Assembly (NCBI GenBank): GCA_019057635.1 | Contig: DXJL01000113.1 | Span: forward strand, 6,737 to 70,736 | Direction of reading: 5' to 3' | DNA length: 64,000 nucleotides | Source of the DNA: Candidatus Heimdallarchaeota archaeon | GTDB lineage: Archaea > Asgardarchaeota > Heimdallarchaeia > Hodarchaeales > Hodarchaeaceae | In this document: positions 1,767-17,895 of the stretch, in pieces | Numbering within the stretch: the stretch's first letter is position 1 | How the letters are laid out: every line of letters begins with the position of its first letter | Translations under genes and position numbers: made by a program | The notes under the pieces: model-generated | What the model saw: the letters and a program-made list of their open reading frames with translations, nothing else | Databases searched by the model: none | What the model was told of the DNA's origin: nothing

Positions 1767-2330
1767 ATGAGTTTCCTTACCAAACTACGCTCGAAGTTCG
1801 CAAGAGAACGATTAACGGTGAAAATTGCCTGGTTAGGGCTTGATCATGCAGGAAAGACAACAATCGTCAAAAGAATTACCTCTGGTGAATTCGATGATAG
1901 TACATTTCGTACACTTGGTATGAATGTAGACGAGTTCAGCTCTGGTAATGTTAGATTTATATCTTGGGACATCGGTGGCCAAGAAGCCTTTCGTGAATCC
2001 CTCTGGGAGAGTTATATGGCAGGTTCAATGGGAATTGTTTATGTAATTGATTCAAATGACCGACAACGTTTTGATGAAGCTCAAGCTGAATTATGGAAGT
2101 ATGTCTTAAATAATGATAAGGTAGAAAACATCCCCATTCTGGTACTTGCAAACAAACAAGATCTTGAAAATGCTGCATCAGCTGGAGAAGTTGCTCGCTC
2201 CCTTAATCTTCACAAAGTAACCACTCATTCATATGCAATCGTACCTACTTCAGCTAAAACAGGCTTCAATATTGAAGAAGGATTAGAATGGCTTCGACAG
2301 CGAGTTACTGAAAAAATAGAAACTCTCTGA
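1767..2330 (+). CDS. Arf/Arl-family small GTPase, second tandem copy
   Basis: The N-terminal amphipathic segment MSFLTKLRSKFARE is followed by G1 GLDHAGKTT, G3 WDIGGQ, G4 NKQD and G5 TSAKTG. It lies 13 bp after the previous GTPase. Confidence 0.8.
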   Translation: MSFLTKLRSKFARERLTVKIAWLGLDHAGKTTIVKRITSGEFDDSTFRTLGMNVDEFSSGNVRFISWDIGGQEAFRESLWESYMAGSMGIVYVIDSNDRQRFDEAQAELWKYVLNNDKVENIPILVLANKQDLENAASAGEVARSLNLHKVTTHSYAIVPTSAKTGFNIEEGLEWLRQRVTEKIETL

Positions 2331-2352: not shown

Positions 2353-3147
2353 TTATTTTTTCATAACTTTTTTGTCCGAGACAAGATTTACTCTTTCAGT
2401 TAACGTTATGAATAGTCGATGTAACTTTGTTAGATCTAAATTCTTATTTATTCTGGAATATATACGAATAGAAGGATCTTCTGACGAATCGATAGAAATA
2501 CGTACAACAGAATCACGAATGGCGTATATTTGCTTAAGAAGTGGTTTATCTTTGAGGAAGAAGTCGCCCATACGTTCAGATGTTGCTTTCATTAAAAAGA
2601 ATTGATCTAATAATTCAGAATCAAGTATAACGTCTTTTAACTGAAAAAGTAAGTCTTGATGTTTTTTAATTTGTCCTTCTTCATGATTGGGGATAATTTG
2701 TATTTTTGTTGGTAGTTTCCCTTTTTTTGCATTTCCTTCTAACGCAATGTAGTCATTTGCTCCTGAAAACCATGAGATTATCACAGATAACATTAAATGA
2801 CGCTCTTCCAACGCAAACACGACACGAAAATCTTTGAATGGAATTTTAGATGATTTTTTATATTTAGGAAATAATAGGCCACCATTGGAAGTTATTTGAT
2901 CAGTTACTAAATCATCAAATTCATTAGAAAATATTTCAAGAAGAGCATCCTTTGATACATTGATAATTTTATGATTCTTCCTCCTACCAGACCACAACAG
3001 GTAAAAAGTAAAAAATAGAACTAATCCTGGTCCTAAAAATATTACCATATAATCTAGAAGCCCGTATTGCTCAGATTGAAGAAAGAATTGTCCAATGAAA
3101 AGAAATTTTTCCATAAAAGGGTCGTATATTGCCATTTTGAATCTCAA
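2353..3147 (-). CDS. Hypothetical protein with an N-terminal membrane anchor
   Basis: A hydrophobic helix VIFLGPGLVLFFTFYLLW lies near the N-terminus. No motif was recognised. The ORF is long with a clean frame. Confidence 0.4.
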   Translation of the reverse strand: MRFKMAIYDPFMEKFLFIGQFFLQSEQYGLLDYMVIFLGPGLVLFFTFYLLWSGRRKNHKIINVSKDALLEIFSNEFDDLVTDQITSNGGLLFPKYKKSSKIPFKDFRVVFALEERHLMLSVIISWFSGANDYIALEGNAKKGKLPTKIQIIPNHEEGQIKKHQDLLFQLKDVILDSELLDQFFLMKATSERMGDFFLKDKPLLKQIYAIRDSVVRISIDSSEDPSIRIYSRINKNLDLTKLHRLFITLTERVNLVSDKKVMKK

Positions 3148-3228: not shown

Positions 3229-3801
3229 TCAAGATATATCTAGGTAGCTGGCTATTTCTCTATATTGAAAAATATCACTTTGAGAATTTCCAACGACTTG
3301 AAAAAACTTATATTTGGCGATTCCATCTTCACCAACGTCATTAGGATCAACTACCAGTGCTACTGAAAGAGGTTGAACTAATTGAAAAGAGTATACATGA
3401 GTAGTAATATCAGTTTGTGATAAAAATAATCCATATCCAGGATGTGAATGCCACCAACCCACACAGAATTCTGGACCCGATAATTGATCAAAAACTTGAA
3501 AATCCTCATCAGAAAAAGATACTGAATATTCATCTCCCTGGGTTACATAAATTCCCTTTGATATCATTATTTCTTTTGAGCGAACTTCAATCCCGCTGAG
3601 CAAGCCAATAGCCTCTTTTGGTTTGGCTTCGATAGAATAATTGGTAATTTCTATAATTGTTTGCTGTGATATGGTAACAGAAATTGTCTCTAAACTCAAT
3701 CGAGACATCTCGTTGTTGGCCTGATCTGAATGTAGGCCGTCAATTGATTGGTCTGTTTCGTCCTCATTATCAGAATTTTCAGGGGGATCTTTATTTGTCA
3801 T
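3229..3801 (-). CDS. JAB1/MPN/Mov34 (JAMM) metalloprotease, a putative deubiquitinase of the Rpn11/CSN5 type
   Basis: The JAMM motif is intact: upstream Glu (EAIGLLSG) then HSHPGYGLFLSQTD, which is H-x-H-x7-S-x2-D. There is an acidic N-terminal extension. Confidence 0.85.
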   Translation of the reverse strand: MTNKDPPENSDNEDETDQSIDGLHSDQANNEMSRLSLETISVTISQQTIIEITNYSIEAKPKEAIGLLSGIEVRSKEIMISKGIYVTQGDEYSVSFSDEDFQVFDQLSGPEFCVGWWHSHPGYGLFLSQTDITTHVYSFQLVQPLSVALVVDPNDVGEDGIAKYKFFQVVGNSQSDIFQYREIASYLDIS

Positions 3802-3896: not shown

Positions 3897-4448
3897 CTAA
3901 CTCGTTCCATGCTCTTTTGTCCATTTAACAGCTTTCTCCCAGAAATCATTGAAATTGGACTGCATGGATTTTCCAGCCTCTGGATTGAATGGATCGCCAG
4001 GATCAACGAGGTATTCTGGAAATTCAGAATCTCCTGAACTCTGATAGACATCAAGCATCATTTCGATATGCTCAAATACACTAGGTAGAGTTATAGTCTT
4101 TTTCCATCCACCAAGTTCACCTATATTGTTCCAATTGATTAAACTAAGACAAACATTAGAACCCCATTTCCAACGAGTTTCACCTATAGCAATATTGGGA
4201 TGCCAAATTGGTGTAATAAAATTAACAATTGGAGGTTTGAATGGATATTCAGGTGGTAAATCAACGGTGATTTTCCATTCCCCGTTTTCATACGGAGTGC
4301 CTTCTTTCCCTTTTATTGTAGCAGAGTAGTGATGAAGATCATTATCCACTATTAGCCACTTTATGGTAGCACTTTTTGGGGGATAAATCTTTAGCATTCG
4401 CTTAAATTCTTCCCTTAATCGTCTGGAATGTAGATCAGACATAAGCAA
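3897..4448 (-). CDS. Ubiquitin-conjugating enzyme E2 (UBC fold)
   Basis: PPEYPFKPP, the HPN motif (IWHPNI) and the catalytic Cys context NVCLSLIN are present. Confidence 0.85.
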   Translation of the reverse strand: MLMSDLHSRRLREEFKRMLKIYPPKSATIKWLIVDNDLHHYSATIKGKEGTPYENGEWKITVDLPPEYPFKPPIVNFITPIWHPNIAIGETRWKWGSNVCLSLINWNNIGELGGWKKTITLPSVFEHIEMMLDVYQSSGDSEFPEYLVDPGDPFNPEAGKSMQSNFNDFWEKAVKWTKEHGTS

Positions 4449-4763: not shown

Positions 4764-5552
4764 ATGACTGATATCGAGACAGAAGTTGCCCAGTGTAATG
4801 GATGTGGTGCTCCTCTATTAGGAAACCCTTCTTCTCTTCGTCCCGTTCATTGTGAATATTGTGATTTGACAAACTATCTCAGGAAATCACAGGGAATAGC
4901 TCCTGATGAAAGTTCAGTAAACGAGGAAGTGGAATCTGAACATTATTATCTTTTATATCAAGAATCCCAGAAAATACTGGAAAATTTTCCTGGGGAATTA
5001 GCGGGAGAGGAAGTAGGAAAAATTCGTATTAAAATGCAAGTTGGACAGTACGCATTTCCATTATTGATAGTGCTTGATGATTTACCAGAAAAACCCTTTA
5101 TCGATGGTCCAAATGTTCTTCGAGAAGTTATCAACTGTGAGATTAATGACTTAAATACTATGAAAGATTGGATACCTGGAACAAGTTCGGTATTAGATGT
5201 CTTAGAAGAAATCTACCAGATATCTGAAAATCAACTTCCTCAAAAAATGGAAGGCCCTTCAACGACAAGTGAGTCAAAAAGTACGATTAAAGAAAAAAAT
5301 CCCCTCATACGACAGATCTTGGAAAGTTATGATGCCACGCCAACAAGAAAAGAAATTAAAATTAACTTTTATGCACAAACAGGAGAAGTTATTCCATTCA
5401 CAATCAAAAGAAAAAAGAACTATCCGATAGGTCTCGAAAGTGAAGTTCTTTCGAGGTATCCACTTATCCGCGGACCTTTAGAGGATTATGCGAAAGGTCG
5501 TATTGATCTTATTACTGTGTTGGCCGAAATTGAACGCTTATTCTATGTGTAG
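4764..5552 (+). CDS. N-terminal zinc ribbon plus an E2-variant (UEV/RWD-like) domain protein; a candidate ESCRT-I Vps23/TSG101-like ubiquitin binder
   Basis: CNGCG...CEYCD forms a zinc ribbon. The central region LPEKPFIDGPNV resembles the E2 YPFKPP...HPN region but lacks the HPN motif and the active-site context. Confidence 0.35.
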   Translation: MTDIETEVAQCNGCGAPLLGNPSSLRPVHCEYCDLTNYLRKSQGIAPDESSVNEEVESEHYYLLYQESQKILENFPGELAGEEVGKIRIKMQVGQYAFPLLIVLDDLPEKPFIDGPNVLREVINCEINDLNTMKDWIPGTSSVLDVLEEIYQISENQLPQKMEGPSTTSESKSTIKEKNPLIRQILESYDATPTRKEIKINFYAQTGEVIPFTIKRKKNYPIGLESEVLSRYPLIRGPLEDYAKGRIDLITVLAEIERLFYV

Positions 5553-5574: not shown

Positions 5575-5904
5575 ATGAATAATCGAAAAAAAGATGTTGT
5601 CTGGGACTCAAACGTTAATTCCCAAGGAACAACATCGGATGGTATTGAACGTATGATTAAAGTCCGTTTTAAGGACCCACAACTTCCACCAGATCAAAAC
5701 ATCCGTGAAAAATATATTAACATAAATGGTACAGTTTTTCAAGCAATTACAGCAGCACGTGACGCATTTAATATTCCTGAAGTTGTACCAATCGCACTAC
5801 TGTTTAAAGGTCGAAGAATGAATCCATCAAACAACCTTGTTTCGTACAATATTGAAGATAACGCCCTTCTAATGATAGTACCTGATCAGATAAAAGGGGG
5901 GTAA
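5575..5904 (+). CDS. Ubiquitin-like beta-grasp modifier with a C-terminal Gly-Gly
   Basis: The 109-aa protein ends ...PDQIKGG immediately before the stop codon. Its size and hydrophobic pattern fit a beta-grasp fold. A GAGGT RBS lies 8 nt upstream, and the gene sits directly upstream of E1. Confidence 0.7.
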   Translation: MNNRKKDVVWDSNVNSQGTTSDGIERMIKVRFKDPQLPPDQNIREKYININGTVFQAITAARDAFNIPEVVPIALLFKGRRMNPSNNLVSYNIEDNALLMIVPDQIKGG

Positions 5905-5939: not shown

Positions 5940-7178
5940 ATGAACTCACATCTCCCTTATTCAAAATTTGATCGTCAAGAGCGTCTTTCGATTTGGGACC
6001 AGAGTCTCATTGAAAAAAGTTGTGTGTTAATAATAGGAATAGGAGGAACTGGGGGAGAAGTGGCCAAGAATTTATCTTTACTTGGGGTGGGAAAATTGAT
6101 TTTGGTAGATATGGATACAATCGAATTTTCAAACTTAAACCGCCAACTACTATTTTCAAAAGCAGATATTGGTAAGAATAAAGCAAAGATAGCTAAGAAA
6201 GTAATTAAAAAAAGGTATAATTCCACTTTGAAAATTGAGGCGTATAGTGATCCCATTCAATCACTGCCTTACAGAATTTTTGAGGAAGCTGACATAATTG
6301 CTGGGTGTGTTGATAACTTTCTCGCACGACAATTTATTAATGAAATTGTTATAGAATTATGTTTACCGTTAATCGATTCTGCAACCGATGGTTATTTTGG
6401 CCAGGTACAAAGTGTAAATCCAAGGAAAAACGCTTGTCTGGCTTGCGATTTTCCACCTCCTCCAGAAGAGACTCGCCTTCTATCTGCACCCTGTACTCTT
6501 GTTGGAACTCCAAGAATCAAAGAACATTGTGCATGGAAGGCCCTTTATGAATTTCATACTATGAATGATCGGGAACCTGATGAAAATTCCCCCGATGATG
6601 TTCAGGAGATTACAAACCTAGCAAATAAATTCGCTACCGATCACCAATTCCCACTCTTTGATACCAAAGAGATTATTCAACTTGTATTATACCACGTACC
6701 TAGTCTAATTACTGTTAATGCGGTAACTAGTGGAATTCAATCGCAAGAAATCATAAAAACTCTATTTATCAACAAAATGAAGCTTTTTAAAAAAAAGGAT
6801 CAGAAGGAATTCAAATCTCTTATCCGTGCACAACGATTCAGAATTCCTGATTTAACTATTTATTCTGCACTAACAGGAAATATTAGTTCTTTTAATCTTA
6901 TCAATGATCCAGATTGTTTGGTGTGTGGTAATTCTTCAATTTACCACCAAACTCCAGTAACAATAAATGTAAACCCAAAGTTGAAATGCAAAACGATTTT
7001 TACAATATTAAAGCGTAGATTCAAGAAAAATTATATAGGTTTTAGAGGAAATTTCATTATTCCAGCGGAAGCATTAATAGAAAATATTCTTCAAGACGGG
7101 GATAGAATAACCGTTAGTTCACTAGATGATGATAAAGAAAAAAGAATAAGAATTAAATTTAAAAAGAAGAAGGGTTAA
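5940..7178 (+). CDS. E1-like ubiquitin-activating enzyme (ThiF/MoeB/UBA fold)
   Basis: The nucleotide-binding GIGGTGGEVAKNL and the motif LVDMDTIEFSNLNRQ are present. There are CxxC pairs (CLACDF), a Cys-containing segment APCTLVGTP, and a roughly 150-aa C-terminal extension. Confidence 0.85.
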   Translation: MNSHLPYSKFDRQERLSIWDQSLIEKSCVLIIGIGGTGGEVAKNLSLLGVGKLILVDMDTIEFSNLNRQLLFSKADIGKNKAKIAKKVIKKRYNSTLKIEAYSDPIQSLPYRIFEEADIIAGCVDNFLARQFINEIVIELCLPLIDSATDGYFGQVQSVNPRKNACLACDFPPPPEETRLLSAPCTLVGTPRIKEHCAWKALYEFHTMNDREPDENSPDDVQEITNLANKFATDHQFPLFDTKEIIQLVLYHVPSLITVNAVTSGIQSQEIIKTLFINKMKLFKKKDQKEFKSLIRAQRFRIPDLTIYSALTGNISSFNLINDPDCLVCGNSSIYHQTPVTINVNPKLKCKTIFTILKRRFKKNYIGFRGNFIIPAEALIENILQDGDRITVSSLDDDKEKRIRIKFKKKKG

Positions 7179-7507
7179 TCTTCATCAGTGGAAGGGTAAA
7201 AAATACGTACCTTTCTTCTAAGCTTTGGTTTTATCGGTTGAATGGATGGATTAAGATAAGGGTCTTTCAGTCCAAAATCTTGAATTTTTTCTTTCGTAAA
7301 TTTGCTGTAAATTTGACTAGATATTCGATCACGAGAAGTTTGACGGGATTGGGGTTTTTTGGCACTAAATTTTCTTGGTGAAGGTACAGTTAATCGAATG
7401 GTCGTTCGTTTTCCACATTTAGGGCAATACCACGCACCTGTGACAGGTTGTTCATTTGAACGAGGAACATATCCACAAAATTGACATTTAAATTCAGATT
7501 CTCTCAT
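7175..7507 (-). CDS. Small zinc-ribbon protein with a basic tail
   Basis: CQFCG...CPKCG is followed by a Lys/Arg-rich C-terminus. It overlaps the E1 stop by 4 bp. Confidence 0.35.
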   Translation of the reverse strand: MRESEFKCQFCGYVPRSNEQPVTGAWYCPKCGKRTTIRLTVPSPRKFSAKKPQSRQTSRDRISSQIYSKFTKEKIQDFGLKDPYLNPSIQPIKPKLRRKVRIFYPSTDED

Positions 7508-7657: not shown

Positions 7658-9418
7658 TTGTGCATCATGTTAAGACGAAAGAAGAAGAAATGGCTAGAAG
7701 CAGTTTCTACGGCACAATCACCAATACGGATAGAGGATTTTTCTTCTTCTACTGATAAAATGAATGTTGTCGCCTTTTTATATGAAAAAATCCAACAACA
7801 ACAATTGGATGGGCTTTTAGACTATAATCATATCTATTTCATTCCGAAATCACATATCTACAAAAAAATTCAACAATTTCTAGACGCACAAGGAATGGTT
7901 GATATATGTGAACTAATAGACCTAATGAATTTACCAGGTAATTTGCTTGAGCCTATTATCCATGATTACGTGCAAGAAATAGACGGTTTTTTTGATTTAA
8001 TCAAACGAAAATTCTTTACACGATCAGGAGCTATCTCATTCATTACTAAACTTCTTGGTAACACTCCCACGCATGATCTTGAATATTTACTAAATCAGAT
8101 ATACTGGACAGATCACCAATTAGAAGCTGTATTAGACTTAATGGCGCAAAAAGATCTATTCAGGGGTTATATTGACCCTATCAAACAACGTTTATACAAC
8201 TTCAAATCCCTTCGTTTTTCCCTTACTACTCCGAATGAAGGATCGATGAGAGCCCTATCCCGATTCATAAATGCATCATTCCAAATTTCTTCAGAAGTTT
8301 CTTTAATAGACATTTCTCGCCTTACAACGCTACCACAGGATGATCCATTGAAATTTCTTGAACTCTTTGAGAATCGTTTGAGTTATATTAGTTCTAAGGA
8401 TAGAGATTATATATACTCTACAATCGATATTGTTTCGCAAATTATATGGGATATTTATGTGTATGAAGAGATACCTTTGGATTTCTGGGTAGCCAGGTTT
8501 GATCTTGGGTTTGAAGCCTTATCTGATCTATTATTAGTATTAAATGAAAGTTTTCGTGGTAGCTTATCAAAAAAGTTTCTAAAAGGTATTTCTTTGATTC
8601 ATTGGTTCGAACAAGGAATTGATATTGAAGGATTAGCTACAAAAATAAATATAGACGTCTTGAGATTGTTAAAAGAGATAACAACTATAGCCCTTCGTTT
8701 AGAACTTCGTTTGGTGGCAGGTGATTCAATAAATCCGTTTCTAGTGAAAGGAATCAGAGATTTAGAGATATTTTGTCAAATTGATACTTCCTCATATTCC
8801 AATCCTTCAGTATACTTTGAGTGCCAAAATTGTAGGAGGGTAATGTGCTCAAACTGCAGAAAAATTGATAGCACCCATGAATGTCCGTTTTGTGGAAATA
8901 TTTCTGCGTTTATTATCGATCTACCACGGAATTGTCCTACTTGCCAATTGACCTATGCTTATTCATATAATCTTGAAACAACTGAGGAGTGCTATTTCTG
9001 TGAACAAGGTCCATTGAAATCTGGATGGTTTACTTCAGAGCAAAAACCCTTGAGTCTTACCGCTACTGAAAATCAATTTGTTAATTTCATCCAGAATCAT
9101 CATTCTCCAATAATTCCTTTACAACAAATTATTGATTTTGTTAGTCAATCATCAGAAGAAGTCATAAAAATACTAGAAAAACTCATTACTCACAAAATCA
9201 TTGCGGGAACAATTAGCATTCAAAAATTGCAATTGAAAATTAAAAAAGCTTATGTTTCGTTTGAGTGTGTGGTTTGTAAATGGGTTAAAACCGATAAAAA
9301 GAAGTTTATCTGTAATTTGTGTAACGGAGAAGTCTGTGAAAATTGTTATCAAGGGATGGAGTCGGTTGGAATGGTTGATTGTCCAGAATGTGGATCATCT
9401 CTTGAGTTAGTAGAATAA
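7658..9418 (+). CDS. Large alpha-helical protein with a C-terminal cluster of zinc-ribbon/treble-clef modules; a candidate E3-like or ubiquitin-binding component
   Basis: The C-terminal 200 aa contain at least five CxxC pairs: CQNC-CSNC-CPFC, CPTC-CYFC and CVVC-x10-CNLC-CENC-CPEC. The C-x2-C-x10-C-x2-C spacing matches the RanBP2/NZF type. Confidence 0.4.
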   Translation: MCIMLRRKKKKWLEAVSTAQSPIRIEDFSSSTDKMNVVAFLYEKIQQQQLDGLLDYNHIYFIPKSHIYKKIQQFLDAQGMVDICELIDLMNLPGNLLEPIIHDYVQEIDGFFDLIKRKFFTRSGAISFITKLLGNTPTHDLEYLLNQIYWTDHQLEAVLDLMAQKDLFRGYIDPIKQRLYNFKSLRFSLTTPNEGSMRALSRFINASFQISSEVSLIDISRLTTLPQDDPLKFLELFENRLSYISSKDRDYIYSTIDIVSQIIWDIYVYEEIPLDFWVARFDLGFEALSDLLLVLNESFRGSLSKKFLKGISLIHWFEQGIDIEGLATKINIDVLRLLKEITTIALRLELRLVAGDSINPFLVKGIRDLEIFCQIDTSSYSNPSVYFECQNCRRVMCSNCRKIDSTHECPFCGNISAFIIDLPRNCPTCQLTYAYSYNLETTEECYFCEQGPLKSGWFTSEQKPLSLTATENQFVNFIQNHHSPIIPLQQIIDFVSQSSEEVIKILEKLITHKIIAGTISIQKLQLKIKKAYVSFECVVCKWVKTDKKKFICNLCNGEVCENCYQGMESVGMVDCPECGSSLELVE

Positions 9419-9426
9419 ATTAGTTA

Positions 9427-10320
9427 TTATGACGATTTTTCGGCTTTTATTTTTGCGAGTTTTGATGAATATTTATCGGCTATTTCTTTATATCGTTTTT
9501 CAGAGATTTTACCTCCTAAAAACATCTCATCAGCCTGTTCGAGCATTAATTCGAATTTTTTAATTTTTTCTGAAACCTCATCAAATTTATTTCGCTCTTC
9601 TGCGAGTTCCTGTTGAGTTTCAATAATTTGCTTTTCAATCTCATACGTAAGTAAGGTTTCGTACTCTTCAGGCACTTTAAATCCACCAATATCTAATCCT
9701 ACTAGTTCTAGGCCCCATCGAGAGCTTTCAGGACCTAATTCAGATCTTGTTTGAATTTCTAAGCTTCTTCTGTCTTTTAATAACTCAGGTACAGTGTAAC
9801 GAGTCATAACATGTTTAACAGCTGCTATCACCGTCTGTTTCACCCAATTTTTAAGCTCATTTCCACTATAATACTGTTTATGGGAGACTACGTTCATGAT
9901 AAAATTCCTTGGATTCACAATCCGCATCCGAGAAATTCCCCAACATCCCACCATAACATTGTCTGAGGTGTAAATACCAGGCGTTCCCCATTTAATGATA
10001 AATTCACGTTTTGTAACCCATATAATTTCACTTCCAGGATGCTTCGCTGTTTTTTCCAATTGATAAATTCCACTCCCAGCAACTCCAACTAGCACCCCTG
10101 ACTGTAACAACACGGCATTTTCTGGTTCTTTTACAATAAAGCCGTCAATTTTTCTAAAGTTATCATTTTCTTCTGCTTTCACTCTATGAATTAACGATTC
10201 ACCAAGTGAATCATCAAATTTTGAGCTTAGAATCGCTTTTCCCTTGAATTTCTTGGTACCTATGTGAATTGTATCCCCTATTTTACGGAATAGTCCACCA
10301 AATTTGTCTGTTTCCGCCAT
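9427..10320 (-). CDS. SPFH/band-7 (stomatin/prohibitin-like) domain protein with a C-terminal coiled coil
   Basis: TSDNVMVGCWGISRMRIVNPRNF and NELKNWVKQTVIAAVKHVMTRYTVPELLKDRRSLEI follow the band-7 core pattern. The C-terminus is Lys/Glu-rich and helical. Confidence 0.5.
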   Translation of the reverse strand: MAETDKFGGLFRKIGDTIHIGTKKFKGKAILSSKFDDSLGESLIHRVKAEENDNFRKIDGFIVKEPENAVLLQSGVLVGVAGSGIYQLEKTAKHPGSEIIWVTKREFIIKWGTPGIYTSDNVMVGCWGISRMRIVNPRNFIMNVVSHKQYYSGNELKNWVKQTVIAAVKHVMTRYTVPELLKDRRSLEIQTRSELGPESSRWGLELVGLDIGGFKVPEEYETLLTYEIEKQIIETQQELAEERNKFDEVSEKIKKFELMLEQADEMFLGGKISEKRYKEIADKYSSKLAKIKAEKSS

Positions 10321-10329
10321 CGCTTCTAC

Positions 10330-11331
10330 CTACCAATCTTCATCTCCATATAACCCTGGAAAGTAATACTGATCTCCTGAATCAAGTGATGACACTTTTC
10401 GAGCAACTTTTTGATTGACAAGACTATCTAAGACCCTCATTACTCGTTGTTGATCCCATTTAGTATGAATCATAACTTCCTCAAATGTTACATAGCCTTT
10501 ATCTATTGCTAGATTAAATATGTTCCGGGCATCTTTTCCAAGAGCTACTGGTGTAAACTCGACAATTTTTATGCCAGATTGTTTGGAAACTCCTTCAATT
10601 AACGATTGTTTAGTTAGTTGTTTACAGGCCTTTTCTAAATCTTTCAATGAAAACTTGATATCTGGAACTTGATTTTTCAGAGAAGTATACAAGTTTGCCA
10701 TTGAAATATAACCACCTGAACTTGCTCTAAGAGTTTTTCCTTGTTCAAGGATTAAATCAGCAAGATTGTCAACAAATTTCCCTTTCCCAAATATTTTTGG
10801 CTTTTTTGTTGCATCTAACGCGGTTATTGTTAGTGTACGCCCTTCTTTTCGGAGTAACTCTCTCTCTAATTGCTGAATGCGGGAATCATATTTCTTCTGT
10901 AAATTCTTAATTCCCTCGGTTGATACTGGAGCTCCGTTAGCCAACTTATTTTGAACTTGAACTACCTCTTCTAATCGCGTTATCTGTTCACGAAGATCTA
11001 ACAACTCACTGCGGAGATCTAATTCTTTATTCCCAAATTCAAGATCATCAATTAATAGTTTAGACCGTTCTGTTATTTGGTCACAAAGAATAGTTGCCAG
11101 TAGCTGCGCAACACGGATTTCCCCACTTTCCTTTAAATTGGCCATTTTATTATCAGAGTAGAGTATTATATCAGGCACAGTTTCGCTTAAATACCTAATC
11201 TCTTCAAATTGTGTATAAAATTTAATTACTAGATCTGATATGTGTTTAGCTTTCATTGCAGCAGTATTACTTAATTGATTTAGCGCATTACTTGCAGTTT
11301 GAAATTTTTCTCTCAAAATAAGGGTCACCAC
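10330..11331 (-). CDS. ESCRT-II subunit Vps22/EAP30 homologue (tandem winged helix with an N-terminal coiled coil)
   Basis: SGGYISMANLYTSLKNQ...SLKDLEKACKQL...IKIVEF...GYVTFEEV...WDQQRVMRVLDSLV...YYFPGLY aligns with the EAP30/Vps22 pattern GG-I-L-EL...DL-RA-KKL...GYVT...W...RA-VL-L...YW-P-LF. Confidence 0.75.
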   Translation of the reverse strand: MVTLILREKFQTASNALNQLSNTAAMKAKHISDLVIKFYTQFEEIRYLSETVPDIILYSDNKMANLKESGEIRVAQLLATILCDQITERSKLLIDDLEFGNKELDLRSELLDLREQITRLEEVVQVQNKLANGAPVSTEGIKNLQKKYDSRIQQLERELLRKEGRTLTITALDATKKPKIFGKGKFVDNLADLILEQGKTLRASSGGYISMANLYTSLKNQVPDIKFSLKDLEKACKQLTKQSLIEGVSKQSGIKIVEFTPVALGKDARNIFNLAIDKGYVTFEEVMIHTKWDQQRVMRVLDSLVNQKVARKVSSLDSGDQYYFPGLYGDEDW

Positions 11332-15777: not shown

Positions 15778-16302
15778 TTGGAAAAAGACAACCAGGAGAT
15801 TGCTAGCTTGATAGATCCACGAAGGTTTGACAGTGTACTCAGTAAAATCATAAAAAGTGAACCCGGTATCCGAAAAATTATTCTAGTCGACCGGACTGGT
15901 CTTACGATCGCTCATGTTTCCAAGTTTAGTTATGTATCTGTTGATGTTGATGGCATTGGAGCAATTGCTTCAGCTGTATTTATGGCATCAGCAGAACAAG
16001 GATCTAATCTGACAATTGGCGGATTGGATATTGTCACTTCAGAATTCGATACTGGTAAAATATTCGCAAGCGCTTGTGGCCGAGGAATTTTGACAATAAT
16101 CTCAGATGCTGAGGTTAATATCGGAATGATCCGCTTACTCATGAGAAAGGCTAATGAGGAACTTAGCTCAATCCTTGATGAGTTTTTAGCTGGACAACCA
16201 TCTCGAGCCTTCTCAGGAATTGCCTCTGAAGCACCTGAAGTTCGTACTGGGCTCGAAAAAGATGAACTTGAAGCCGCGCTACGAGAGCTTGAAAAATTCT
16301 AA
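15778..16302 (+). CDS. Roadblock/LC7 (MglB-like) domain protein
   Basis: IRKIILVDRTGLTIAHV...DGIGAIASAVFMASAEQGSNLTIGGLDIV follows the Robl/LC7 alpha-beta-alpha pattern. Confidence 0.7.
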   Translation: MEKDNQEIASLIDPRRFDSVLSKIIKSEPGIRKIILVDRTGLTIAHVSKFSYVSVDVDGIGAIASAVFMASAEQGSNLTIGGLDIVTSEFDTGKIFASACGRGILTIISDAEVNIGMIRLLMRKANEELSSILDEFLAGQPSRAFSGIASEAPEVRTGLEKDELEAALRELEKF

Positions 16303-16344: not shown

Positions 16345-16926
16345 TTGCGAAAAGACGCAGAAGGTCGTCATAGATTTAAAATAGTATTTTATGGTCCCTC
16401 TCTCTGTGGAAAAACAACAACTCTTGGTTGGCTTTATCATAAGGTTGATGGTTTAGAAAAGGGGAAATTTACTCAACTAGCTGATCCACATGGACGCACG
16501 CTTTTTTTTGATTTTGCACCCATGCAAGCTACTACAGGAGTGGTTTTTGACGTTTACACTACAGCAGGACAGGAAAGACATAAACACCAGCGTAAAATAG
16601 TTATTCAGGGGGTAGATGGCATCTTATTTGTTGTTGATTCTTCATCAGATCAGCTTCAAGAAAATATTGCTTCTTTCGAGGAGCTTACAACTCATTTGGG
16701 GGAAGATTTAGGCACCACAATTCCTTTAGTTATTGCTTTGAACAAACGAGATGCTGAGGATGCACTACCAAGATCAGAGCTAATTGAAAAATTAAAATTA
16801 TCCAATTATCCAATTTATGAAACTGTGGCTACTACGGGTATTGGGATAAAGCGTGCTTTCCAATCATTAGCCCGTGAAATATTAATGATACAATTATACG
16901 GAACTAAGACATCTCAGAATAATTAG
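16345..16926 (+). CDS. Ras-superfamily small GTPase (MglA/Rag-like)
   Basis: G1 GPSLCGKTT, G3-like VYTTAGQER (T in place of D, as in MglA) and G4 NKRD are present. Roadblock genes flank it. Confidence 0.75.
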   Translation: MRKDAEGRHRFKIVFYGPSLCGKTTTLGWLYHKVDGLEKGKFTQLADPHGRTLFFDFAPMQATTGVVFDVYTTAGQERHKHQRKIVIQGVDGILFVVDSSSDQLQENIASFEELTTHLGEDLGTTIPLVIALNKRDAEDALPRSELIEKLKLSNYPIYETVATTGIGIKRAFQSLAREILMIQLYGTKTSQNN

Positions 16927-17442: not shown

Positions 17443-17895
17443 ATGTCTAAGCAAAGATATGTGCGGAAATTTGTTTACAAGGGTGTAAGAATGTACATTC
17501 CCGATACTGATGCAGATCTACAAATGCATAAAGAAATAGTCGAAGTCTTGGAAGCATTTGTTAGTAAATTGCCAGCTATAGACTTTGCTAGCGTTGTTAG
17601 TCTTGAAGGACTTCCCATTTCCTCTTGGCCTCCTAAACTTCCAGGTGATTTGGATGATGTGCGAATAGCCGCAATGACTGCGGCAATTCTTAGTTTAGGC
17701 GAGAGAGCTGTCATGGAAACGGGGAAAGGAGAAATGACACGGATTCTTGTCGAAGGAAACGATGGTTACCTTATTTCAGTTCAATCTGGTAGTAAAGCAG
17801 TATTAACTGCTTCAGCAAACAGATCGGTGAAATTGGGCTTAATTTTTCTTGATATGAAACAGGCTGCAAAGAAAGTCGGTGAAATACTGGGTTAG
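17443..17895 (+). CDS. Roadblock/LC7 domain protein, second copy
   Basis: The pattern FASVVSLEGLPISS...AAMTAAILSLGERA...ILVEGNDGYLIS is Robl/LC7-like. Confidence 0.6.
   Translation: MSKQRYVRKFVYKGVRMYIPDTDADLQMHKEIVEVLEAFVSKLPAIDFASVVSLEGLPISSWPPKLPGDLDDVRIAAMTAAILSLGERAVMETGKGEMTRILVEGNDGYLISVQSGSKAVLTASANRSVKLGLIFLDMKQAAKKVGEILG

Follow-up and report, generated by a model that had tools for sequence, protein, structure and literature searches.

The stretch of DNA analysed here, referred to as the window, comprises 64,000 nucleotides from the genome of a Candidatus Heimdallarchaeota archaeon of the order Hodarchaeales (contig DXJL01000113.1). The gene under study (the target gene) encodes a zinc-ribbon protein with two non-catalytic domains resembling ubiquitin-conjugating enzymes (E2s). 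It is a real, conserved gene of Asgard archaea and belongs to a set of genes for ubiquitin tagging, together with an activating enzyme (E1), an E2, a ligase-like (E3-like) protein and a deubiquitinase. In an earlier note, made from the sequence of the window alone, the protein had been described as a zinc ribbon joined to one catalytically dead E2-like domain (a ubiquitin E2 variant or UEV domain) and had been proposed as a ubiquitin receptor of ESCRT-I (a complex for endosomal sorting), like TSG101/Vps23. The protein seems closer to the adaptor part of the eukaryotic ubiquitin ligase FANCL than to such a receptor.

Full-length homologues numbered 66 (E 1e-171 to 1e-42, 48-93% identity), nearly all of about 260 residues; with this number and near-uniform length, the open reading frame is a genuine gene and not a chance one. 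The homologues with a named source are from Hodarchaeales or Heimdall-group Asgard archaea throughout, and each is called "hypothetical". When the protein was compared with Pfam and NCBIfam, no family was matched at E≤1; this includes UEV (PF05743), RWD (PF05773) and FANCL_d1, FANCL_d2, FANCL_d3 and FANCL_C. No description of a family combining a zinc ribbon with tandem domains of the ubiquitin-conjugating (UBC) fold was found in the literature on Asgard RWD, FANCL or UFM1. Three alignments were used: A1, of 37 Hodarchaeales sequences; A2, of the broadened family of the first E2-like domain; and A3, of the second domain alone. The protein was modelled with AlphaFold2 on A1 (mean predicted local distance difference test score (pLDDT) 77, predicted template modelling score (pTM) 0.47), and the full model contains two alpha-beta4-alpha modules. 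The elements of the gene are as follows:

4764..5552, forward strand: whole gene, an open reading frame of 262 codons with an ATG start, encoding the zinc ribbon, a UEV/UBC-like domain and an RWD-like domain
4794..4862, forward strand: amino-terminal four-cysteine zinc ribbon, C11-x2-C14 ... C30-x2-C33, consensus CxGCGAPL...P..CxYCxLxNY
4923..5246, forward strand: domain 1 (residues 54-161), non-catalytic and UBC/UEV-like, from the alpha-beta4-alpha fold of the model, Foldseek and profiles
5136..5138, forward strand: Cys125, clade-specific (in 36 of the 37 Hodarchaeales sequences), within the counterpart of the E2 active-site loop
5247..5300, forward strand: variable linker (residues 162-179), disordered in the model, pLDDT below 50 at residues 164-174, length-variable columns in A1
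5301..5546, forward strand: domain 2 (residues 180-261), atypical RWD-like, from the model of the domain alone and Foldseek

The zinc-ribbon open reading frame of the earlier note is confirmed, with its CxxC...CxxC pattern at the amino-terminus. Residues C11, C14, C30 and C33 are invariant across the 37 homologues of A1, and the zinc-ribbon profile also matches the amino-termini of more distant relatives of Freyr- and Loki-type Asgards (P0069, P0073, P0075 and P0077). The ribbon is poorly resolved in the model, with low confidence.

Domain 1 is made up, in the model, of a helix, four strands, two short helices and a long helix. The UBC-like fold that the earlier note had placed in residues 70-170 is present at residues 54-161, according to the model, Foldseek and profile searches. 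The segment quoted there, DDLPEKPFIDGPNVLREVINCEIN, is located at residues 105-128 and does not contain the HPN tripeptide; what had been called its YPFKPP-like motif is the segment L107-P108-x-x-P111-x-x-D114-G115-P116, which is invariant in A1. G115-P116 sit where HPN would be, and at this position the target family has GP(N/S/A/G/T). Domain 1 also carries a W136-x-P crossover-helix motif. In the broader alignment A2, P108 alone is invariant and W136 is nearly so, corresponding to the E2-type motifs [YFL]PxxP and W-x-P, and no cysteine, histidine or asparagine is conserved. The family-conserved HPN and catalytic cysteine of active E2s (UQ_con, PF00179) were not found in the target. In a broad sense of the term, domain 1 counts as a UEV, with a UBC-like fold, no HPN and no family-conserved cysteine, and it is plausible that the protein binds ubiquitin.

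When the A2 profile was searched against all PDB sequences, the top 13 matches were UBE2V2/Mms2, UBE2V1 and E2s including Rad6, at E of about 0.002. The matches to UBE2V2 and UBE2V1 are marginal, with about 21 bits and some 70 of the 113 profile positions covered. The alignment to Mms2/Uev1 takes in the YPxxP motif, strand beta4, the loop, the conserved tryptophan and the crossover helix. Judged by sequence, domain 1 would have its weak affinity with the Mms2/Uev1/E2 core rather than with TSG101. Comparison of domains 1 and 2 by hhalign with a five-sequence alignment of the cassette E2, and with each other, gave no signal, the alignments being shallow (Neff about 1.9).

The earlier note had also seen no canonical cysteine environment in this region. 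This holds in so far as no cysteine is conserved in the family, but the near-invariant Cys125 of Hodarchaeales had been overlooked. The one remaining Hodarchaeales sequence has an arginine in its place, and all more distant orthologues lack the cysteine, P0067, P0069, P0070, P0073, P0074, P0075 and P0077 among them. In the alignment of A2 with PDB sequences, the catalytic cysteine of Rad6 is matched with D129 of the target; Cys125 lies four residues upstream. The candidate pattern DGPN-x7-C125, taken as a degenerate HPN...Cys active site, was rejected as a family feature, since Cys125 is limited to the clade and the catalytic position is that of D129. Cys125 could be a clade-specific functional residue.

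Were Cys125 a thioester acceptor in Hodarchaeales, the protein would be a cryptic non-canonical E2, or an E2/E3 hybrid. E2s lacking HPN exist, for instance UFC1 and ATG3, and the position of Cys125 in the active-site loop is consistent with such an enzyme, as are the weak UFC1 matches of the distant relatives and the UFL1/DDRGK-like winged helices of a 586-residue protein encoded nearby. By our own count, Cys125 follows N117 by eight residues, as the cysteine follows HPN in UbcH5B; this is to be taken as a lead only. We regard a cryptic E2 as highly improbable, however: one Hodarchaeales sequence and all the more distant orthologues that share the gene context lack the cysteine, the catalytic position falls on D129 in the profile alignment, and the cassette already has a canonical E2.

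Domain 2 is the most conserved part of the protein, with the pattern RKKNxPIG ... G.LEDY..GR.D ... EIE. The conserved carboxy-terminal block in A1 consists of R216-K217-x-N219-x-P221-I222, G237-x-L239-E240-D241-Y242-x-x-G245-R246-x-D248 and E255-I256-E257. Modelled alone on A3, the domain reaches a pLDDT of 93.9 and is formed by a helix, four strands and three helices (alpha-beta4-alpha3). Its best Foldseek match is FANCL (7kzp_M, query TM-score (TMq) 0.56, r.m.s.d. 3.6 Å over 88 columns), followed by Ctf19-Mcm21, CENP-O and the double-RWD (DRWD) region of FANCL (3zqs), and E2s are missing from its top 50 matches. Both domains show the RWD-type sandwich (alpha-beta-beta-beta-beta-alpha-alpha, with a YPxxxP turn after beta3), the turn residues being L107-P108-x-x-P111 in domain 1 and N219-Y/F/L-P221-I-G in domain 2. 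A ubiquitin-like fold for domain 2 was considered and rejected, because the alpha-beta4-alpha3 model (pLDDT 94) matches FANCL and kinetochore RWDs; the sole match of a Hodarchaeales-only profile to PDB sequences, a beta-hairpin of SUMO2 aligned in domain 2 (E 0.016), was judged spurious. Of the single E2-like region of the earlier note, the fold of domain 1 stands, but this second domain of the UBC superfamily had been left without comment.

When the full model was compared with the PDB by Foldseek, FANCL chains 7kzp_L, 7kzp_M and 9a0j_L came first (E 9e-5 to 9e-4), then the FANCL DRWD structure 3zqs and, after these, the tandem-RWD kinetochore proteins CENP-P and Knl1. Further down is a long series of single-domain E2 and UEV structures (Ubc13, Mms2, Uev1 and FTS). 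These stem from domain 1, since they span 110-127 columns, more than the 87 residues of domain 2. The UEV domain of Vps23 (1uzx) ranks 12th, with an E-value of 0.1. The likeness to UEV domains put forward in the earlier note holds at the level of the UBC-like fold, but FANCL, not Vps23, is the best match.

Searched against 1.84 billion representative proteins, the Hodarchaeales profile reached only 25 proteins, which fall into three groups:

Group 1: divergent orthologues (P0067, P0070, P0074)
Group 2: proteins with a zinc ribbon and three domains, from Freyrarchaeia and Loki-type Asgards (P0069, P0073, P0075, P0077)
Group 3: proteins of 400-630 amino acids with three to five tandem domain copies (P0076, P0079-P0090)

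The multi-domain Asgard proteins are reached at whole-library E-values of 6e-11 to 1e-4. Domain copies in the relatives surpass the Pfam cut-offs of UQ_con and RWD, the RWD scores being 41.5 bits for P0083 and 36.7 bits for P0082 (cut-off 22.8). The domain-1 profile overlaps the UQ_con-positive copies directly and the RWD-positive copies after one iteration. Sub-threshold matches were obtained to FANCL_d1 (21.7 bits, cut-off 23.8, in a relative's counterpart of domain 1), FANCL_d2 (E 0.048) and BRE (E 6e-5, 22.5 bits, cut-off 25.8), together with weak matches to UFC1; in the homologous domain of one distant relative, Pfam UEV is matched at E 0.006 (16.9 bits, below the cut-off of 27). In P0079-P0090, the three to five homologous UBC-like domains are followed by a carboxy-terminal C4HC3 finger that matches PHD and RING. 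P0079 (locus L008, 10001-11905), P0076 and P0080-P0090 are from Promethearchaeota (Loki-type) and show, with their tandem domains and carboxy-terminal finger, a FANCL-like architecture in archaea. A search of A2 against a 5.8-billion-protein database gave only four matches, all Asgard fragments, and is uninformative on eukaryotic relatives.

The other genes of interest in the window are, in order of position:

1205-1753 and 1767-2330, forward strand: tandem pair of Arf-family small GTPases, shortly upstream of the cassette
2353-3147, reverse strand: 264-residue protein matching no Pfam or NCBIfam family, on the same strand as the JAB gene and downstream of it
3229..3801, reverse strand: JAB/MPN deubiquitinase-like protein (Pfam JAB, E 8.4e-10), beyond the E2 gene
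3897..4448, reverse strand: canonical E2 with HPN and active-site cysteine (Pfam UQ_con, E 2.3e-24), divergent from the target gene
5575..5904, forward strand: ubiquitin-like modifier of 109 residues ending in IKGG-stop (Pfam Rad60-SLD and ubiquitin; PDB ubiquitin matches)
5940..7178, forward strand: E1 of the ThiF family, 412 residues (Pfam ThiF, E 7.7e-50), 35 nucleotides after the ubiquitin-like gene
7175..7507, reverse strand: 110-residue four-cysteine zinc-ribbon protein, with generic zinc-ribbon matches only
7658..9418, forward strand: 586-residue protein with winged-helix repeats and a cysteine-rich, RING-like carboxy-terminus (weak matches to E3_UFM1_ligase, PCI and DDRGK)
9427-10320, reverse strand: SPFH/Band-7 gene, 9 nucleotides after the EAP30/Vps22-family gene
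10330-11331, reverse strand: EAP30/Vps22-family gene (Pfam E 1.4e-10), 4.8 kb from the end of the target gene
15778-16302, 16345-16926 and 17443-17895, forward strand: trio of Roadblock/LC7, Ras/Arf-like GTPase and Roadblock/LC7

As the earlier note had it, the target gene is co-oriented with the ubiquitin-like and E1 genes; the gaps are 22 and 35 nucleotides. Since the ubiquitin-like protein ends precisely at Gly-Gly-stop, no carboxy-terminal processing is needed. A stretch of about 35 residues precedes its beta-grasp core as an amino-terminal extension, and its match to UFM1 (1j0g), although over the whole length, is insignificant (E 0.85). The 586-residue protein has two cysteine-rich regions, the last of which (residues 537-582) resembles the C4C4 RING of MAT1 (E 0.012). 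This protein is likely a scaffold-type or RING-type E3 and is proposed as the E3 partner of the cassette; its homologues are encoded at L009 12486-14288, L005 680-2446, L010 30-1769 and L007 7668-9650. The gene for the 110-residue zinc-ribbon protein is convergent with the E1 gene and overlaps its stop codon by four nucleotides at the 3' end; in L005 its homologue lies directly downstream of the gene for the winged-helix/RING-like protein, in the same direction. The 110-residue protein may be another component of the cassette. The 264-residue protein, conserved in the Hodarchaeales loci at lengths of 253-286 residues and with one amino-terminal hydrophobic segment seen by eye (MVIFLGPGLVLFFTFYLLW), may be a membrane anchor for it. 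The Arf GTPases and the Roadblock trio are typical Asgard eukaryotic-signature genes lying beside the ubiquitin cassette.

Over more than 20 kb, gene order in the core Hodarchaeales loci (L001-L004) follows that of the window. The arrangements in more distant lineages are:

L010 (Loki-type, 6.4-kb contig): tight co-directional operon of a 579-residue winged-helix/DDRGK-like protein, E1, E2, JAB, the orthologue of the target with zinc ribbon and three RWD-like domains, and ubiquitin
L009: orthologue with two RWD-like domains, ubiquitin, E1 and a 600-residue winged-helix/RING-like protein; no E2, JAB or EAP30 nearby
L005: orthologue with zinc ribbon and two RWD-like domains, ubiquitin and E1 kept together
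L007 (Freyrarchaeia): orthologue divergently adjoining a 660-residue winged-helix/cysteine-rich homologue; no ubiquitin genes or EAP30 nearby

In L010, the E1, E2, JAB and ubiquitin proteins are 37-49% identical to those of the window, the E2 being 49% identical. The ubiquitin gene adjoins the orthologue of the target in L005, L009 and L010, and linkage to E1 is likewise kept. In L005, EAP30, SPFH, a 588-residue winged-helix/RING-like protein and a small zinc-ribbon protein are grouped in a block of their own at a distance of 5.7-9.6 kb, with the winged-helix/RING homologue 7.5 kb from the relative of the target. No neighbour accompanies the target family more consistently across Asgard classes than the 586-residue winged-helix protein. 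The durable associations are with ubiquitin and E1 and with this protein of about 590 residues, not with EAP30.

Linkage to the E2 bears on whether domain 1 is an E2 cofactor of the Mms2/Uev1 type, which would pair with the canonical E2, position the acceptor ubiquitin and direct chain formation or the specificity of mono-ubiquitylation. In the window, the two genes are separated by a divergent intergenic region of 315 nucleotides common to both, and in L010 they are in one operon; UBE2V2 (Mms2) and UBE2V1 are the best PDB sequence matches of the family profile, and Mms2 and Ubc13 structures are among the Foldseek matches. We nevertheless consider this role unlikely. No recognisable E2 was found beside the orthologues in L009, L005 and L007, the E-values are marginal, and Mms2 and Uev1 are single-domain proteins, whereas the target has a zinc ribbon in addition, and an RWD-like domain that is more conserved.

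The JAB gene of L010 ends two nucleotides before the orthologue of the target, an arrangement that would suit a tandem-UEV scaffold organising or regulating a JAB/MPN deubiquitinase. BRCC45 (BRE) does this for BRCC36 in the BRISC and BRCA1-A complexes. The sub-threshold BRE matches of the relatives point the same way, and chain 6gvw_C of the BRCA1-A complex is aligned by Foldseek over 196 columns, though with a probability of only 0.35. In the window, however, the JAB gene is on the opposite strand, beyond the E2 gene, and no JAB gene was found near the orthologues in L005, L009 and L007, which makes a BRCC45-like scaffold quite improbable.

The Vps22 homologue that the earlier note had reported at 6 kb is the EAP30/Vps22-family gene. 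It is probably co-transcribed with the SPFH gene, and its product has an amino-terminal extension of about 110 residues; Asgard Vps22 proteins with steadiness-box fusions have been reported (Makarova et al. 2024, PMC10936438). As an ESCRT-I-like receptor, the target would pass ubiquitylated cargo to this protein. The UEV-like fold of domain 1, the sub-threshold UEV match in the homologous domain of a relative, and the arrangement with EAP30, which is kept across Hodarchaeales, are consistent with this, as is the finding that Asgard UEVs bind ubiquitin (Hatano et al. 2022, PMC9192718; bioRxiv 10.1101/2023.07.25.550441). The assignment to TSG101/Vps23 was, however, not borne out. Descriptions of Asgard ESCRT-I UEV proteins give a UEV domain, a stalk and a steadiness box, with Vps28 fused to some of them (Hatano et al. 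2022, PMC9192718; Makarova et al. 2024, PMC10936438). No coiled-coil stalk, steadiness box or Vps28 domain was found in the target, the carboxy-terminal 82 residues of which fold RWD-like; PF05743 is not matched, and the Vps23 UEV comes below FANCL in the structural ranking. Linkage to ESCRT genes consists of EAP30 only, in Hodarchaeales only: L009 and L007 have no EAP30 gene within 10 kb, in L005 it stands apart with SPFH and the winged-helix/RING-like gene, and no ESCRT-family gene is present on the short L010 contig. Neither Vps4, ESCRT-III, Vps25 nor Vps28 was found among the open reading frames scanned (about 1-27 kb of the window), and the region at 16-27 kb contains no ESCRT genes, but Roadblock/LC7 proteins, small GTPases, an A/V-type ATPase subunit, a tRNA synthetase and translation factors. 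For Hodarchaeia, a genuine UEV-Vps23 has been reported in another cluster, which it shares with ubiquitin, Yip1 and a Rab-like GTPase (Lu et al., bioRxiv 10.1101/2023.07.25.550441). A role of the target in ESCRT-I is accordingly improbable.

We favour, with a probability of roughly 0.4, a role of the target as a non-catalytic adaptor subunit of the cassette's E3, docking ubiquitin or E2, and not as a subunit of ESCRT-I. Its mode of action would be like that of FANCL's ELF/DRWD portion: ubiquitin or the charged E2 (E2~Ub) would be docked non-covalently by the UEV-like domain 1, the highly conserved RWD-like domain 2 would bind a partner or substrate, and ligase activity would be given in trans by the winged-helix/RING-like protein of about 590 residues together with the canonical E2 of the cassette. 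The analysis shows the fold, that catalytic residues are not conserved, that gene linkage is kept and that in some relatives the same domains are fused to a RING/PHD-like finger; we infer the binding partners, the E3 role and the assignment of domains to ligands. The full model and domain 2 both have FANCL as their top structural match, the fusions to a C4HC3 finger in P0079-P0090 are of the "Rosetta-stone" kind, linkage to the ubiquitin, E1 and winged-helix/RING-like genes extends outside the core Hodarchaeales, and the carboxy-terminus of the proposed partner resembles the MAT1 RING.

Several points weigh against an E3 adaptor. The structural E-values of single domains are weak (0.07-0.8) and the PDB sequence matches marginal (E about 0.002). 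With a pTM of 0.47 the geometry between the domains is uncertain, so that the FANCL match partly reflects the presence of two UBC-like domains in tandem and not specific homology. The 586-residue partner has no Pfam RING match and its RING-likeness is marginal. Synteny within the core Hodarchaeales says little about function, because the whole region is collinear, and the RING-fused relative P0079 of L008 has no ubiquitin genes nearby.

The usual description of Asgard ubiquitin cassettes comprises ubiquitin, E1, E2, a RING or UFL1-like E3 and a JAB deubiquitinase. The target is a further, unannotated component, and at least four divergent Asgard lineages keep it beside ubiquitin and E1. What is new is its three-module architecture; as a non-catalytic adaptor of the UBC superfamily it is of a known kind. 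Should it serve as an adaptor or E3 subunit, a specificity factor may be missing from in-vitro reconstitutions of Asgard ubiquitylation. A wider and more tentative proposal, which we rate as doubtful, is that the protein with zinc ribbon, UEV and RWD domains and the relatives with multiple UBC-like domains and a RING form a family of FANCL-like E3 modules specific to Asgards, with the module divided here between the target and its winged-helix/RING-like neighbour. If so, the "atypical RWD" lineage (FANCL, kinetochore and Mediator RWDs) would predate eukaryotes, as ubiquitin-wired tandem pseudo-E2 arrays in archaeal ancestors, and the minimal Asgard ubiquitin cassette would gain a sixth obligatory component, omitted so far from reconstitution studies. 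The analysis also corrects a tempting but wrong shortcut, as a dead E2 near Vps22 is not necessarily ESCRT-I, and this bears on inferring a pre-eukaryotic coupling of ubiquitin and ESCRT.

Among known systems, the TSG101/Vps23 UEV shares with the target an E2-like, catalytically dead fold, but differs in its PF05743 signature, stalk, steadiness box, Vps28 domain and gene neighbourhood. Mms2 and Uev1 (about 145 residues) likewise have the UBC fold without catalytic cysteine or HPN; the target is without the two carboxy-terminal E2 helices. BRCC45/BRE is similar in its tandem UEV-type domains and its association with a JAMM/MPN deubiquitinase, with fold and Pfam similarity that is weak and sub-threshold; BRE has no zinc ribbon, and linkage to JAB is not kept in all lineages of the target. 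FANCL, the E3 ligase of the Fanconi anaemia core complex, is built of an ELF domain, a double-RWD domain and a RING. Both it and the target have tandem non-catalytic domains of the UBC superfamily (ELF and DRWD in FANCL), and the relatives in which a C4HC3 RING/PHD-like finger follows three to five UBC-like domains have a FANCL-like layout. The target itself differs in lacking a RING, in having two instead of three UBC-like domains and an extra amino-terminal zinc ribbon, and in its place in an operon with ubiquitin, E1, E2 and JAB, away from any Fanconi-pathway context; sequence identity to FANCL is 14-18%. With RWD (PF05773) and the atypical RWDs of kinetochore and Mediator, the target has in common the alpha-beta4-alpha fold, the [YFL]PxxP turn and the lack of a catalytic cysteine, whereas its domain 1 retains the E2-type W-x-P crossover-helix motif. 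FANCL has been placed in the "atypical RWD" class with kinetochore and Mediator RWDs, for which a single "RWD-like" Asgard sequence was noted (Tromer et al. 2019, PMC6601020). The fold of the target ties the archaeal ubiquitin system to this FANCL/kinetochore class of pseudo-E2 (RWD) domains.

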